Below, piece by piece: positions 1-40,981 of a DNA stretch of 40,981 bases. Origin of the DNA: Escherichia phage J8-65; the sequence record NC_025445.1, one strand, 5' to 3'. Under the pieces are notes generated by a model. It was not told where the DNA came from. It ran no database searches and saw only the letters and a program-made list of their open reading frames with translations. The stretch's first letter is position 1. Each line of letters begins with the position of its first letter. Both the position numbers and the translations under genes were made by a program.

Positions 1-259
1 TCGACCCGAAGGAGCGCCTGCGCCCCCGTACGCCTGTGCGCGTGCGCGTGCATGACGTGTGCGCATTATGCGTGCGTGCCTGCGCGTGCGGTATTGCTCG
101 CGTGCGTGCGGTATAGTTCGCGCGTGCCCGTTTCCATTGTCGCGGTGTGGTGCTGTGTGGTGCTGCGTCCTGCTGCTGCGTGCTGCGCCACTGCTACCAC
201 TGGACGCGCCTGCGCTGGGCTGCTGGTGCTGGGCGGTGCTGCTGTGTGTATCGGTGGCT
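1..259. repeat. left direct terminal repeat (DTR)
   Basis: bases 1-259 are identical to 40723-40981; GT-rich, A-poor; typical T7-supergroup terminal redundancy. Confidence 0.85.
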
Positions 260-686
260 GGGCGCGGGGCTATCTATCTTTTTTCGTGGCGCTGCTGTCA
301 TAGCTCGCTTGCTGTGTGTGCTGTGTGTCGTGTGCGGTACTGTGTGCCATCCTGCTACGCTACCGCCTGCGCCCTGTGTCTCCAGCTCATCGCGTCACTG
401 TGTAACACTCTGATACTTGCTATCCGTTCGCGTTCACTCAATCGTCACTCCGTGTCTCTTTCGTTCCGCTCCGCGCTCCGCTATCGCACTGCGTGCTGCG
501 TCGCTTACGCTGCGTATCGCTACAGCTATACACTACAGTTACTTTCATTTAATCATTGATTTAAAAGGATTTATTTACGGTTATTCTGCTGTGTGTAAGC
601 TACGCAATAACCTATTCAATCAAATATTTATTATCAATGATTCCAGTGACTTATCGCCTTTTTGAGCTATTCAGTGAAAATAATTC

Positions 687-715
687 TTGCAATGTTGTTT
701 GTGATTTGCTGTAAT
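687..715 (+). promoter_or_regulatory. sigma70-like early promoter (TTGCAA-N17-TGTAAT)
   Basis: -35 TTGCAA 687-692, 17-nt spacer, -10 TGTAAT 710-715, in AT-rich block upstream of first genes. Confidence 0.5.
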
Positions 716-792
716 TCATCTCGCCGGACGACACAGCGTTAACGTGTCGGACGGTGTAAGACGGTAACACTGTTCTTTAACAATCTGGTGTG

Positions 793-821
793 TTGACAAG
801 GCAAGCTCACTATGCTGTAAT
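793..821 (+). promoter_or_regulatory. sigma70-like early promoter (TTGACA-N17-TGTAAT)
   Basis: consensus -35 TTGACA 793-798, 17-nt spacer, -10 TGTAAT 816-821. Confidence 0.6.
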
Positions 822-928: not shown

Positions 929-957
929 TTGACAGGATGAAACGAGTATGCTGTAAT
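929..957 (+). promoter_or_regulatory. sigma70-like early promoter (TTGACA-N17-TGTAAT)
   Basis: -35 TTGACA 929-934, 17-nt spacer, -10 TGTAAT 952-957; same architecture as 793-821. Confidence 0.6.
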
Positions 958-1007: not shown

Positions 1008-1036
1008 TTGACAAGCTGAATACGATGTGATGTAAT
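1008..1036 (+). promoter_or_regulatory. sigma70-like early promoter (TTGACA-N17-TGTAAT)
   Basis: -35 TTGACA 1008-1013, 17-nt spacer, -10 TGTAAT 1031-1036. Confidence 0.6.
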
Positions 1037-1467
1037 CAGCACCGAGTTGAAAGGTTGCAAAACAACCTGCTCTGAGTGAACGTAAACTGGCCACGTAGTG
1101 TCACGGCCTCATGGGTATCCGGCGCAGCTAGGAACTGGTGAGGGCACCGCCGAAAGGCAATAGGGGTAGCGCCCGGTGCAAGGGAACGGAGAAGCGCGAT
1201 AGACGCAGCGCAGTATCAGCACAATCCCGAACGTCTTATAAGGCGCGGAGTGTAGCGGGTAGGTAGGCAAGCTGGTAACGGTGAGCCGGACTGCTGGAGG
1301 ACTCCTGAGAGTGGATGCAGACAATATCCACGGCGCGAAATGGGCGGGGCGATTTTTCAGGGTAGTGAATCCGACAAGCCAATCAATGCCAACGAGTGCA
1401 GACTGTACGGCGCGTCACAATGGGTTCACTATCCACCTGAAAATAGCCAACAACTGGAGAAATCAAT

Positions 1468-5631: not shown

Positions 5632-5663
5632 CTTACTCGTGGCATTTCGTGAGAGATGCCACC

Positions 5664-5903
5664 ATGAAAGTAACTGTATTGCACAACATCGGAGGAGATA
5701 TGCTCAAAGTAATATTGTTGTTCCTGCTTCTGGTAATTATTTGGGGAGCGTTATGGGTGGGTCTTGCATCACTGGTGCTTATCCCTGCGGTCGGTGAGTC
5801 AGCCACTTCAACACTGGGCACACTGCTCGGCATGTTGGTGGGCTGGGGTCTGATGCAGTTGAGCCTGAGTGTAGGCCAGAATCGGGGGTGGATTAAATGG
5901 TGA
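5664..5903 (+). CDS. small membrane protein with two predicted TM helices (79 aa)
   Basis: ATG 5664; VILLFLLLVIIWGALWVGLASLVLIPAV and LGTLLGMLVGWGLMQLSLSV hydrophobic segments. Confidence 0.55.
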   Translation: MKVTVLHNIGGDMLKVILLFLLLVIIWGALWVGLASLVLIPAVGESATSTLGTLLGMLVGWGLMQLSLSVGQNRGWIKW

Positions 5904-17174: not shown

Positions 17175-19604
17175 ATGGATTTGCTGGCAGAACAGATTCG
17201 ACTGGAAGAAGAGGCGCGTGCCCGTCACCGGGCAGGCTGGTTAGATAACGTACGAGATGCGATAGACTCAGGCCGCGCCTCGGCGGTGCCACTGTTGCAG
17301 CGAGCGATGGTTGAGGCATACCCCACTGTCGAAGCTGCAATGCTGGATATCCTGAACGAAACTACTCGTGGGTTCGGTGCGCAGTACCGCACGTATCTTC
17401 GTGAAGTTGGGGCCAAGACCTGTGCGTCTCTGGCCCTGAGCATGGCGGTGTCCGGCGCGACCGGGCGTACCGCCGTGACTCAACTGCTCCGCGAGATGGG
17501 GCAGGCAATGATGGCTGAGGTAGTCTATGCGAGAGCTGAGAAGGCTGGCAAGCGCGAGGCTGCGTACATGGAGAAGGTTCGCCGTGACGTGAACAAGTCC
17601 AAGTCCAAGTCGCCGAACCACATCTACAACAAGGCACGCGCTGCCTCAGCCAACGTTGGTGTCGAAACTGAAATCCTGCCACAGCGTGCGCTCATCACAA
17701 TCGGCAAGTTGATGATGCGTGCTGTCGAACCGACTGGTCTGGTCAAGACTGTCCGAGTCGGCGGTAGCTTGAAGAACCGGGCGACGGCGCACTTCGCTCT
17801 GCATGACGATGTGCTCATCATGCTTGAGGATTGGATGAAGCTGCCACACCTCGGCATCAACTGTTACCCACCGCTGATTGTGCCGCCAGCTCAAATCAAT
17901 GCGAATGGCTTCGGCGGTATGTGGCACTCTCCGGGGCAGGCAGCGACGTATGTGGCAATCAGCAAGCTCAAGCACCCGGCGTACCGTAAGTTAGGTATTG
18001 ACCCACTGCCAGTGATTGAGCCGTGCATGATGCTGTCGAGCGTTCCGTTCCGCGTGAACAAGATGGTGCTGGAGTTCCTGCAAGCCAACCGAACCGGGGT
18101 GATGGGGTTGCCTGTTGCGCCAGTAGAACCGAAGCTGCCGTTCACTATCCCGGAGGGCGTAACGTTCAGCCAGTACATCAGCAAGTTCCCGGCTGAGATG
18201 CAGCAGCGTATGGATGCTGAGGCACACGAGTTCAAGGTCAAGACTCGCATCTACCACAATGACATGAAGAAGTTCACCACGCAGATTCAGGCACTGAGCA
18301 GTGCGCTGCGCGAGGCTGAGCAGTACAAAGTGTACGAGCGAATCTACCTGCCGACGTACGCCGACACCCGTGGCCGTTGCTACTATGCCTCAGCCCTGAA
18401 CCCGCAAGGCATTGACGCAATTCGTGCTTTGCTTGAACTGGCCGACCCGGTGCCGTTGGGTAAGGAGGGTCTGTTCTGGTTGAAGGTTCATGTGGCCAAC
18501 TGCTTCGGCTATGACGCTACAGACTTTGAAGACAGGGCAGCGTGGACTGATAAGACAATGCCGCGACTGCGCGAGGCTTGCCGTCTGCCGGAGGCATACG
18601 ACTCGTTCTGGTCTGAGGCTGACAGCCCACTGTGTGCATGGGCGGCTGCGGTAGAGCTGGTGCGTGCGCTGGATAGCGGGAACCCGGAAGAGTATCCGTG
18701 CCGCGTGGTGACGCAATGGGATGCAACATGCTCAGGTCTGCAACATCTCTCCGCAATGCTGCGCGACGAGGTGGGTGGTGCTGCGGTCAACCTGATTGAT
18801 TCCGTAGGACGTAAGGCAGACATCTACGTTAAGACCGCTACAGCGGCTCTGGAGGCGTTAAAGGAAGCAGAGGCAACCAACCCTACGGTCTTGGGTTCGT
18901 GGCTCGTACAGACGGGCATAGAGCGCGGCATGGCCAAGAAGCCTGTGATGACTTATGTGTACGGTGCGACACGCCACGGCATGGTGGATTACTATGCTCT
19001 GTATTTGCGAGAGCACAACACTCCGCTGCCGGAAGGGTACACCCTGTTCCAGTGTGCAATGTACATCGCCGGGTTCATGTGGGATGCAATTCCTCGCGTG
19101 GTGCCGAAGGCTGCTGAGCTGATGGCGTGGCTGCAAGCTATCGCATCGGAGGCAGCGGCTAACGGGGAGTACGTGGAGTTCACTGCTCCGTCTGGTCTGC
19201 GCATGGTGAACATGTATCAGGCTCACAAAGAAACCACTATGGGTATCAAGCTGATGGGTGTTCATGCCATCAAGCTGCGCGAGTACATCGACAAGCCAGA
19301 CGGTCGCAAATGTGCGGCTGCGATTGCTCCGAATTTTGTACACGCGATGGATGCCAGCCACATGATGAAAGTTCTGTGGGAGATGTGGAATAACGGGATT
19401 TACATGGTGTCTATCCATGATTCATTCGGTGTTGCAGCGGCTCATGCAGGTCTACTGCACAAAGTCATCCGTGAAAAGTTCGTGCAGATGTACGAGGAAC
19501 ATGACCCGATTCAACAACTTGCTGTGAGATATTCTAAGGAAGCTCCGGCGCGGGGTCAGTTGGATATCAACGAGGTCAAGAAATCCTCCAAATTCTTCTG
19601 CTAA
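17175..19604 (+). CDS. single-subunit DNA-directed RNA polymerase, T7-like (809 aa)
   Basis: ATG 17175 after AAGGGGA; WDATCSGLQHLSAM, KKPVMTYVYGAT and SIHDSFG match T7 RNAP motifs A, B, C. Confidence 0.92.
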   Translation: MDLLAEQIRLEEEARARHRAGWLDNVRDAIDSGRASAVPLLQRAMVEAYPTVEAAMLDILNETTRGFGAQYRTYLREVGAKTCASLALSMAVSGATGRTAVTQLLREMGQAMMAEVVYARAEKAGKREAAYMEKVRRDVNKSKSKSPNHIYNKARAASANVGVETEILPQRALITIGKLMMRAVEPTGLVKTVRVGGSLKNRATAHFALHDDVLIMLEDWMKLPHLGINCYPPLIVPPAQINANGFGGMWHSPGQAATYVAISKLKHPAYRKLGIDPLPVIEPCMMLSSVPFRVNKMVLEFLQANRTGVMGLPVAPVEPKLPFTIPEGVTFSQYISKFPAEMQQRMDAEAHEFKVKTRIYHNDMKKFTTQIQALSSALREAEQYKVYERIYLPTYADTRGRCYYASALNPQGIDAIRALLELADPVPLGKEGLFWLKVHVANCFGYDATDFEDRAAWTDKTMPRLREACRLPEAYDSFWSEADSPLCAWAAAVELVRALDSGNPEEYPCRVVTQWDATCSGLQHLSAMLRDEVGGAAVNLIDSVGRKADIYVKTATAALEALKEAEATNPTVLGSWLVQTGIERGMAKKPVMTYVYGATRHGMVDYYALYLREHNTPLPEGYTLFQCAMYIAGFMWDAIPRVVPKAAELMAWLQAIASEAAANGEYVEFTAPSGLRMVNMYQAHKETTMGIKLMGVHAIKLREYIDKPDGRKCAAAIAPNFVHAMDASHMMKVLWEMWNNGIYMVSIHDSFGVAAAHAGLLHKVIREKFVQMYEEHDPIQQLAVRYSKEAPARGQLDINEVKKSSKFFC

Positions 19605-19687
19605 TTTAGTCTTATATTTCTTGCACTTAATGAAAGTAACTGTTCTGGTATACCCAGATTACTCTCGTAGTGCATTGGAGATTCTCT

Positions 19688-19870
19688 ATGAAAGACTCAC
19701 CATTAGACAGAGTGACGTTCAACAAAGGACAACTAGCTCTCTTAGAGAAAGCATTCGGTACATGGGAGAAGGTAGGGAAGACCATCACCCATGAATCAGA
19801 TATCTCACTACTGAATAGAGAAGCAGGTAAACAGGACGTGTTGGACTTCATCCGTGAAAGGACTGTGTAA
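19688..19870 (+). CDS. hypothetical protein (60 aa) in low-GC island
   Basis: ATG 19688 with GGAG RBS; atypical low-GC codon usage. Confidence 0.5.
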   Translation: MKDSPLDRVTFNKGQLALLEKAFGTWEKVGKTITHESDISLLNREAGKQDVLDFIRERTV

Positions 19871-20289
19871 TGAAAGTATCTGTAGTGGACAACATACATC
19901 ACACCACGATGCCAATCGACATTCGGATTGCTGTAGCCAAAGGTATACAGGAAGAACGCCAATGGTCTGATTTACCGTGGGATGTGATAGTAGACGCCAT
20001 GTATGATGCCACCGCCAACGGATGCACTGATGTGTATGTCCACGATTCTGACGGTGCTCTCATGGGCTGTGCTCATCTCGGTGAGCTGTTCGATATTCAT
20101 GTGGGGCCGTGTGCCGTTGTAATGGCTATGTATGTATGGCCCCAGTATCGCAACCGGGGAGTGACCCGTCTCATCCTCCGCGAACTCAAACGCGCTGCCC
20201 GGCAAGCTGGGTTGCGCTGGTGCGGTTACTCCCACATGGTACGTCCTTATGTTCAGGAATACCGATTCATTGATTTGGAGAAACCGTAA
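19870..20289 (+). CDS. hypothetical protein, possible GNAT-like fold (139 aa)
   Basis: VVMAMYVWPQYRNRGVTRLILREL resembles GNAT motif A region; low-GC. Confidence 0.45.
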   Translation: MKVSVVDNIHHTTMPIDIRIAVAKGIQEERQWSDLPWDVIVDAMYDATANGCTDVYVHDSDGALMGCAHLGELFDIHVGPCAVVMAMYVWPQYRNRGVTRLILRELKRAARQAGLRWCGYSHMVRPYVQEYRFIDLEKP

Positions 20290-40650: not shown

Positions 40651-40722
40651 GGGCATTGAAAGCTAGGACATTGAACAGGCGTTTCCCGGCTTGAAAATTG
40701 ACTATTTGTGCGTGGGCCTCCC

Positions 40723-40981
40723 TCGACCCGAAGGAGCGCCTGCGCCCCCGTACGCCTGTGCGCGTGCGCGTGCATGACGTGTGCGCATTATGCGTGCGTG
40801 CCTGCGCGTGCGGTATTGCTCGCGTGCGTGCGGTATAGTTCGCGCGTGCCCGTTTCCATTGTCGCGGTGTGGTGCTGTGTGGTGCTGCGTCCTGCTGCTG
40901 CGTGCTGCGCCACTGCTACCACTGGACGCGCCTGCGCTGGGCTGCTGGTGCTGGGCGGTGCTGCTGTGTGTATCGGTGGCT
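40723..40981. repeat. right direct terminal repeat (DTR)
   Basis: identical to 1-259; window ends at last repeat base so the true DTR could be longer. Confidence 0.85.

Follow-up and report, generated by a model that had tools for sequence, protein, structure and literature searches.

A possible R-loop-prone, non-coding terminal transcription unit overlying T7-type junction signals at the left end of Escherichia phage J8-65

We analysed the 40,981-nt sequence of Escherichia phage J8-65 (NC_025445.1; this whole stretch is called the window below), with a focus on its left end, where the top strand of positions 1–540 is depleted of A. The left end matches the genus Bonnellvirus (Autographiviridae), which is represented by smaasur, Lidtsur, forsur, Kc261, RZ4, ROV85 and others. 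Phages of the T7 supergroup have a linear genome of ~40 kb with an identical direct repeat of 150–450 bp at both ends, and the window carries such a direct terminal repeat (DTR), which is 259 bp long. Reading inward from the terminus, the DTR (1–259) is followed by the remainder of the A-poor block (to ~520), an AT-rich region (541–720), four host-type promoters, a 430-nt leader and the first gene, an anti-restriction SAMase (1468–1857). All genes are encoded on one strand and the host promoters cluster at the left end. Judged by this order of elements, the layout is the T7 plan. The features discussed here, including a candidate leftward promoter at the inner edge of the block (P_L), are listed in Table 1.

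Table 1. Positions of repeats, motifs, promoters and genes considered in this study (a slash marks the terminus)
Feature	Position	Strand	Remarks
DTR, left copy	1–259		exact 259-nt match to 40723–40981; top strand A 6.9%, G 38%
Terminus TCGACCC and terminus-proximal motif CCCCCGTA (23–30)	1–34	+	CCTCCC/TCGACCC kept in all relatives
GCGTGCG / CGCGTGC repeats, conserved DTR core	36–127	+	20-bp unit GCGTGCGGTATnGCTCGCGT (Tandem Repeats Finder period 20); enrichment z 4–5; largely alternating purine-pyrimidine
GGTGCTG / TGCTG array, period about 10 bp	137–250	+	TGCT at 151, 161, 171, 181, 192 and 227, 237
T-run element TATCTATCTTTTTT (TATCTrTCTyTTTT across relatives)	271–284	+	12 nt beyond DTR; conserved island; relatives carry TATCTGTCTCTTTT
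TGCTGTGTG / TGTGTGC array	290–350	+	hypervariable among relatives
Promoter-proximal part of proposed leftward transcript	351–520	-	non-repetitive; top (template) strand C 37%, T 30%, A 14%
P_L, candidate phage-RNA-polymerase promoter AATGAAAGTAACTGTAGTG, 18–19 nt	531–549	-	start placed near 533 by analogy with T7 and SP6 promoters
AT-rich region directly behind P_L	541–720	+	~70% A+T; contains host-type promoter TTGCAA (687–692)-17-TGTAAT (710–715)
Host-type promoter TTGCAA-17-TGTAAT	687–715	+	
Host-type promoter TTGACA-17-TGTAAT	793–821	+	
Host-type promoter TTGACA-17-TGTAAT	929–957	+	
Host-type promoter TTGACA-17-TGTAAT	1008–1036	+	
Promoter motif copy, internal	5663–5681	+	between hairpin and ribosome-binding site GGAGG...ATG of membrane-protein gene
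RNA polymerase ORF, 810 aa	17172–19604	+	annotation taken from forsur
Promoter motif copy, internal	19629–19647	+	26 nt past stop of RNA polymerase ORF
Promoter motif copy, internal	19869–19887	+	at junction of next two genes
Conserved approach to left cut site	40686–40722	+	CCCGGCTTGAAAATTG at 40686–40701 (~30 bp before right DTR), then CCTCCC abutting terminus
DTR, right copy	40723–40981		exact match to 1–259

The top strand of 1–540 contains 9.3% A, 30.9% C, 31.1% G and 28.7% T, against 23.2% A in the whole window, and the original prediction of a nearly A-free strand, made from the letters of the sequence, is thus borne out. Within 41–350, A falls to 6.1%, and the lowest-A 300-bp stretch of the genome begins at position 31 (5.7% A; genome mean 23.3%, sd 3.1), more than 5 sd below the mean. 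No trough of similar depth is found for C, G or T across the genome, and the four longest stretches without any A in the genome (53, 45, 36 and 35 nt) are all found within 137–482. A two-segment analysis of A content places the change-point at 521, with 8.3% A to its left and 29.6% to its right, so that the block comprises the DTR and ~260–280 bp more, as had been proposed. Its description as GT-rich is accurate up to ~350, where the GC skew reverses; beyond this point the block is CT-rich.

Short repeats were counted in 1–540 and in 1000 dinucleotide-preserving shuffles of it. GCGTGC occurs 10 times (2.6 expected) and GGTGCTG four times (0.3 expected), counts that none of the shuffles reaches, while GCGTGCG (5 against 1.0) and TGCTG (13 against 5.9) are matched by 4 and 6 shuffles, respectively; 92 positions fall within repeated 8-mers, where 33 are expected. 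The excess is restricted to 1–130 (z 4–5) and 131–350 (z 2–3). The stretch 351–520 is A-poor with a repetitiveness that its composition predicts (z 0.3–1.1), and the idea of a block built from short reiterated units therefore holds for 1–350 and fails for the remainder. Tandem Repeats Finder reports small arrays with periods of 6, 7, 9, 10 and 20, and the TGCT array has a Fourier power of 0.17 at period 10, compared with 0.07 at the 95th percentile of the shuffles. Positions 36–70, inside the DTR, show perfect purine-pyrimidine alternation (TGTGCGCGTGCGCGTGCATG, then ACGTGTGCGCA) and are Z-DNA-prone; according to one report, a short Z-forming tract impedes T7 polymerase (PMC2425487).

The long open reading frames (ORFs) of the block had been taken for artefacts of composition, and our data agree. 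Each of the three stop codons starts with T and includes an A, so that an A-poor top strand with its T-poor complement leaves most frames open, and the plus frames of the block have 1–2 stops per 180 codons. The longest open stretch, at 167 codons, is ordinary for such a composition (shuffles: mean 139, sd 28; 92 of 500 reach it). The translations are of low complexity (Cys/Val/Ala/Leu/Arg), searches of Pfam and PHROG with the ORFs of the block gave zero matches, and indels between relatives do not preserve the frame (9 of 55 are multiples of 3); we therefore reject the presence of real genes in 1–540. Deposited ‘hypothetical protein’ coding sequences (CDSs) of 56–179 aa in the block (forsur_28, Kc261 CDS, Lidtsur CDS, ROV85_21/22) are such artefacts. 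In practical terms, several deposited genomes carry spurious proteins at this site, and most records are not opened at the true ends. A structured RNA in 1–540 was also considered and rejected, as no Rfam family is matched within this range and folding gives z -0.9 for the RNA read rightward and +1.6 for that read leftward.

Comparison with related left ends confirms the low A content and its sharp boundary. The A-poor block (0–12% A per 50 bp) ends abruptly in all 11 related junctions, even though megablast aligns only 2 of 18 relatives across it and a MAFFT alignment of the block is laden with indels. The conserved islands are CCCGGCTTGAAAATTG, CCTCCC/TCGACCC, the invariant TGCGTGCGGTA at 103–113, CTGCGCTGG at 210–218, TATCTrTCTyTTTT at 271–284, CCAGCTC at 382–388 and CTTTCATTTA at 542–551. 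Most variable are the arrays at 230–259 and 290–349, with 30–43% identity and 26–51% gaps. Array indels of relatives often measure 9–11 bp, in line with the ~10-bp phasing of the TGCT units.

The junctions of eight phages with defined ends were compared. A CCCC(C)RT-type motif (mostly CCCCC[AG]TA) lies 20–40 nt from the left end in the window, T7, SP6, KP34, JG068, phiKMV, LKA1 and LIMElight; in addition, Cronosvirus GAP227 has a C-run motif near its unannotated end. The approach to the left cut site is invariant or near-invariant in 11 Bonnellvirus junctions and may represent the recognition or cut site of the terminase. The T-run element stands at the right edge of the terminal repeat and ends in T6. 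This is the position of ATCTGT(T) in T7, SP6 and JG068, where it coincides precisely with the right DTR boundary, and the SP6 boundary TGGGCGTGGGCTA/TCTGTT (slash, repeat edge) aligns to window positions 259–275. ATCTGTT is the class II pause/termination signal of T7 RNA polymerase at the concatemer junction, and any base change abolishes its function (bioRxiv 10.1101/2021.01.11.426313; 10.64898/2026.02.12.705533). The exact signal is not present: the window reads T-ATCTATC at 271–278 and relatives read T-ATCTGTC. ATCTGT is not rare genome-wide, and we regard the T-run element as resembling the T7 signal in position only; since the polymerase of this phage is a different enzyme, the element may nonetheless function. 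The boundary of phiKMV, LKA1, LIMElight and KP34 has TGCCTyTTTTG instead. Inside the repeat, the GCGTGCG core (~59–106) is similar to positions 41–85 of the LKA1 DTR, with a z of 7.1 against locally shuffled controls.

The motif of P_L occurs four times in the genome, against 0.00 expected, once on the minus strand and three times on the plus strand (Table 1). Plus-strand copies occupy sites typical of promoters, 26 nt past the RNA polymerase gene and between a hairpin and a ribosome-binding site. In forsur, all four homologous sites, the minus-strand site included, read ATGAAAGTGACTATAGTG, that is, GTGACTATAG in place of GTAACTGTAG. Two positions have thus changed together at four sites, a signature of promoters that are read by one co-evolving polymerase. 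The minus-strand copy is kept in all relatives, and the motif resembles SP6 (GGTGACACTATAG) and T7 promoters. It is located in the left non-coding region between the end of the DTR at 259 and the host promoters from 687, and it is oriented opposite to all genes. We therefore identify 531–549 as a candidate leftward promoter of the phage polymerase, and infer its activity and start site in this phage from these features. Two other readings of the motif were rejected. As a rightward T7-like promoter (CACTACAG at 531–541) it has no further plus-strand copies and makes sense only on the minus strand. As N-terminal coding sequence (MKVTV) it fails because the copies at 5663 and 19629 come before an independent ribosome-binding site with ATG, and in forsur 80 nt lie between the copy and its downstream gene.

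A similar arrangement has been mapped in the Phikmvvirus LUZ19, where ONT-cappable-seq identified four phage-specific promoters: two directly downstream of the polymerase gene, one within the structural region and an antisense promoter, P001, at the left (PMC10914365). Antisense transcripts from P001 extend across the genome end, and 15 other Phikmvvirus species have kept this layout (PMC10914365).

The A change-point of the window at 521 abuts P_L, and all 11 relatives have an equally sharp edge. The same coupling is seen beyond Bonnellvirus. The phiKMV copy of the P001 motif is at 711–730 (minus strand), near the inner edge of an A-poor block at 1–700 (A 2–12% per 50 bp). In the Stubburvirus LKA1, the motif AATTGTCGCACTAG has plus-strand copies at 17841, 21824 and 31506, one of them just after the polymerase gene, and a minus-strand copy at ~457–483, where the A change-point (459) also falls. 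We discarded the phage promoters that the LKA1 record annotates (CCGCTGCACTCGCAGC), since they have no copy at the left end and AATTGTCGCACTAG is better placed; the motif positions suggest that this annotation is probably wrong. GAP227 has four copies of AATTGGCACyCCTATAG; the one at the terminus faces right, and the 200 nt that follow it are depleted of T on the top strand.

For each terminal promoter we determined the U and purine content of the RNA from +51 to +250 (Table 2). Four complete genomes (window, forsur, LKA1 and GAP227) were ranked; in each, the values belong to the most extreme 0–0.5% of all 200-nt windows, both strands included, while the phiKMV figures come from 1.5 kb of sequence. 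Internal promoters of the ranked genomes are ordinary (U 17–31%). Compared across genera, the bias has a polarity that accords with the direction of the terminal promoter, and the extreme bias tracks the promoter rather than the DTR alone.

Table 2. Composition of RNA +51 to +250 downstream of terminal promoters
Phage	Direction	U (%)	Purine (%)	Remarks
Window	leftward	10	65.5	
forsur	leftward	5.5	64	
LKA1	leftward	4	70	
phiKMV	leftward	6	70	
GAP227	rightward	6.5	71	
JG068	rightward	17.5	68.5	follows pattern partially
T7 phiOL	rightward	17.5	60	weak bias
KP34	rightward	29	48	no bias

We propose that 1–540 is a non-coding, R-loop-prone terminal transcription unit that overlies T7-type junction signals, a reading that we put forward tentatively and rate at a little less than an even chance. 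Two layers would be superimposed. The first would consist of the junction elements of the T7 supergroup, namely the DTR, the context of the cut site, CCCCCGTA, the GCGTGCG core and the T-run element. In the second, P_L would fire leftward, away from all genes, through the block to the genome end and, on concatemers, across the junction. The A-depleted top strand would then be the template of the leftward transcript, and an A-depleted template makes the RNA poor in U (5–13% per 100 nt). From +1 to +200, the predicted leftward RNA has 35–38% G and 64–67% purine, which is not homopurine; the part derived from 351–520 has ~65% purine and 13% U.

Several properties of such a transcript would favour its retention on the template. 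It would have no U-runs, so that neither class of terminator for single-subunit polymerases would be possible and the polymerase should not terminate or release easily. It would also have little self-complementarity, its hybrids would be free of weak rU:dA pairs, and, the region being non-coding, no ribosomes would sequester it; the nascent RNA would thus be prone to stay on the template as an R-loop. An R-loop in the window would hold the DNA beside and within the repeat open or occupied late in infection, and it may mark or open the concatemer junction. Possible uses include a block to late read-through into the early genes, recruitment of the terminase or help for it in processing and duplicating the repeat (a role that polymerase pausing at the junction probably has in T7), or priming of DNA synthesis. 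With T7 polymerase, G-rich purine tracts in the non-template strand near a promoter form stable R-loops that block transcription in an orientation-dependent manner (Belotserkovskii et al., PMC5499740, PMC3561996). The nearest-neighbour energy of hybrid minus duplex is at its genome minimum in the terminal transcript of LKA1 (z -5.0) and GAP227 (z -4.1), and is strongly favourable in that of forsur (z -2.9).

A number of observations weigh against this proposal. In the window itself, the hybrid-minus-duplex energy is only moderate (z -1.8, best 2.8%), the block is 55–67% purine and thus not homopurine, and the predicted leftward RNA shows no significant lack of folding relative to shuffles (z +1.6). 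Activity and start site of P_L are predicted from sequence. The phiKMV change-point lies at 813, ~90 bp inside its promoter, the bias is weak downstream of T7 phiOL and missing downstream of the rightward terminal promoter of KP34, and VP93 shows no A-depletion. LIMElight has an A-poor DTR, yet a terminal phage promoter was not detected in it. More generally, the DTRs of SP6, KP34 and LIMElight and the right third of the T7 repeat are mildly A-poor without a leftward promoter, and a second cause that is tied to the repeat must therefore exist. Finally, the genera with a leftward promoter represent only 2–3 independent lineages.

The best surviving alternative, which we nevertheless consider unlikely, is a version of the packaging-signal view of the original prediction, in which the A-free units (GCGTGCG, TGCTG) form arrays that bind the terminase or another junction protein, and the asymmetry is a by-product of repeating in one orientation, as in the CCTAAAG arrays of T7. 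The enrichment of the units over shuffles fits this view, as do the ~10-bp phasing of TGCT together with the ~10-bp steps of the indels in relatives, the homology of the GCGTGCG core to the LKA1 repeat at equal distance from the end (z 7.1), related motifs in LIMElight and JG068, and the T7 left end, which is likewise made of short direct repeats. However, conservation within the block is lowest in the TGCTG arrays (30–43% identity, up to 51% gaps), and 351–520 is A-poor yet non-repetitive. The bias is moreover retained in phiKMV with different units (CCTGG, CTCC), and the GAP227 block lies beyond the repeat with an opposite polarity that matches its promoter. A polarity that follows the direction of the terminal promoter is not predicted by a model of double-stranded packaging sites. 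What remains of the prediction is a non-coding left end with conserved islands of the junction type (CCTCCC/TCGACCC, CCCCCGTA and TATCTATCTTTTTT); the arrays are poor candidates for specific packaging signals. The strand asymmetry is best tracked by the candidate leftward promoter at the inner edge of the block, an element that the prediction had not mentioned.

In a second alternative, P_L is only an insulator, sending polymerases head-on at late read-through on concatemers and keeping the early genes off at late times of infection, and the composition is incidental. For P001, the LUZ19 authors tentatively suggest a block to read-through into early genes (Putzeys et al. 2024, PMC10914365). 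P_L lies precisely in the interval from the last late gene to the early promoters, and the class II-like T-run element at 271–284 faces rightward polymerases. Ordinary sequence would be equally good for collisions, however, and the extreme U-poor, purine-rich blocks in four genera and the polarity flip of GAP227 are left unexplained, and we judge it rather improbable that insulation is the whole explanation. Least credible is a spacer of some hundreds of bp, required to separate the genome end from the early promoters, that replication slippage of a few A-poor seeds filled without selection on composition: the high indel rate, the unit-length indels, the differing units among genera and a T7 spacer that is G-poor, not A-poor, speak for it, but the bias is extreme (>5 sd) and sharply bounded, keeps its depth across Bonnellvirus, Phikmvvirus and Stubburvirus despite sequence turnover, is present in the non-repetitive 351–520 and correlates in polarity with promoter direction.

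Other causes of the composition were rejected. A three-letter composition that keeps single-stranded repeat tails unstructured for annealing is not supported, as the folding of the single-stranded DTR equals that of shuffles (z -0.26) and somewhat exceeds that of genome segments matched for G+C (z -1.5); somewhat less structure than in controls is seen only in single-stranded 261–520 (z about 2). Avoidance of primase sites on the lagging-strand template is unsupported as well: the depletion of GTC, CTG, GTT and GCT on the bottom strand follows trivially from that of T, GCA is enriched, and the T7 repeat has no comparable depletion. If deamination of an exposed single strand were the cause, C would be lost more than A, the opposite of what is seen. 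Avoidance of restriction sites in the first-entering DNA fails because 520–1470 also enters before the anti-restriction gene is expressed, yet only 1–520 is affected. A GT-rich, Chi-like cluster that acts against RecBCD is rejected, since 1–540 contains no exact Chi (only two sites with one mismatch) and GCTGGTG is not enriched (z 1.3). Genome-wide, Chi (GCTGGTGG) occurs exactly seven times on the top strand and zero times on the bottom strand, an orientation that acts on RecBCD entering from the right end.

The terminal transcription unit that we propose for the window might be an instance of a wider device, although we hold this extension to be doubtful. Many phages of the T7 supergroup would carry a terminal R-loop module, consisting of one phage-polymerase promoter copy beside the repeat followed, in the direction in which it transcribes, by 200–500 nt with an A-stripped template. 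The U-less, purine-rich and ribosome-free RNA would stay annealed and peel the DNA open at or across the repeat, and the exposed single strand or the RNA 3' end would start end reactions such as annealing of repeats into concatemers, DNA priming, or cutting and duplication by the terminase. Base composition, not a motif, would be the signal, and the orientation of the promoter would reveal its polarity (leftward in Bonnellvirus, Phikmvvirus and Stubburvirus, rightward in Cronosvirus).

How phages of the T7 type mark, open and duplicate the single terminal repeat at concatemer junctions is only partly understood, even in T7. Here, an enterobacterial genus shows a layout like that of LUZ19 with an unrelated promoter sequence, and in four genera few stretches of the genome are as U-poor and purine-rich, in the RNA sense, as the transcribed block, with the strand of the bias switching with promoter direction. 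An odd end composition is thereby turned into a testable hypothesis. A literature search returned no account of either the A-poor end or a connection between it and the antisense promoter, and the coupling of promoter and composition as well as the polarity switch of GAP227 appear to be undescribed in the literature searched.

Some further features of these ends deserve mention. The GAP227 record (41250–41796 and 1–250) is not opened at the physical ends. It has a terminus-type motif, CCCCCATAGGG, near 41280 and its terminal phage promoter at 41687, with an exact ATCTGTT 39 nt downstream, and the purine-rich block runs from the end of the record into its start. In most Bonnellvirus relatives, the stretch from the endolysin stop to the DTR (window 40651–40722) contains a GC hairpin (GGCCGTGGGTGCAATACCCCCGGC) that could be a late terminator; half of it is gone in the window and smaasur through a deletion of 11–12 nt.

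All four early host-type promoters are kept across relatives. They have the unusual -10 hexamer TGTAAT, whose G at position 2 causes a consensus scanner to miss them. The 430-nt leader between these promoters and the first gene (1040–1467, plus strand) resembles a large structured RNA. A consensus fold of eight Bonnellvirus sequences has 130 pairs, with 99.8% of cells paired and 12 pairs showing compensatory double changes, four of them consecutive in one helix. None of 500 shuffles reaches 12 such pairs, and slid controls have 0–1. The leader also has a GAAA loop and, in some phages, helix-shaped insertions. It has no Rfam match and is unannotated in every record; it would be the first RNA made upon infection.

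The end of the window is of a known kind, a T7-supergroup terminal region with a putative antisense promoter of the P001 type, previously undescribed in Bonnellvirus. Its closest counterpart in layout is Phikmvvirus (LUZ19 and phiKMV), which shares the DTR, the A-poor non-coding block, the phage’s own promoter in minus-strand orientation, the host-type early promoters and further promoter copies directly after the RNA polymerase gene; in phiKMV, the leftward RNA is likewise U-poor and purine-rich (6% U, 70% purine). The sequences differ. Phikmvvirus promoters read GGTTATGTCACACACA where those of Bonnellvirus read ATGAAAGTAACTGTAG, which does not match the P001 motif GgtTATGTCACacACAnnGG either, the units of phiKMV are CCTGG/CTCC instead of GCGTGCG/TGCTG, and its DTR has 414 bp compared with 259 bp. 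The LUZ19 paper draws no link between P001 and composition (PMC10914365).

LKA1, a Pseudomonas phage, has a homologous DTR core (GCGTGCCTGCGCG..GGTAnnGCTCGCGTGCG) at equal distance from the end, an A-poor block at 1–459 and a leftward copy of its promoter motif at the block edge. It differs from the window in host, G+C content, promoter motif (AATTGTCGCACTAG) and boundary element (TGCCTCTTTTG rather than TATCTGTCTCTTTT).

T7 and the window have in common the repeat, a strand-asymmetric reiterated array, a phage promoter, an AT-rich region, strong, clustered host promoters and an anti-restriction gene in first place, as well as CCCCC[AG]TA near the end and an ATCT-type element with pyrimidines at the right edge of the repeat. 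T7 also has a leftward promoter (A0 at 224), but this is an E. coli host promoter, and phiOL points rightward. The T7 array is built of CCTAAAG and is G-poor, whereas the left array of the window has other units and is A-poor, and the T7 element is an exact ATCTGTT in place of ATCTATC (ATCTGTC in relatives). In T7, arrays flank the repeat on both sides, in contrast to the window, where only 72 bp separate the endolysin stop from the right DTR and no short-repeat array is found there.

The window resembles in part the R-loop-forming tracts of Belotserkovskii et al.: a non-template strand rich in purine and G would begin directly downstream of a promoter for a single-subunit polymerase, the effect would depend on orientation, and nearest-neighbour energies would favour the hybrid. 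Those tracts are homopurine, while the tract of the window is only 64–67% purine and has a modest energy rank (best 2.8%).

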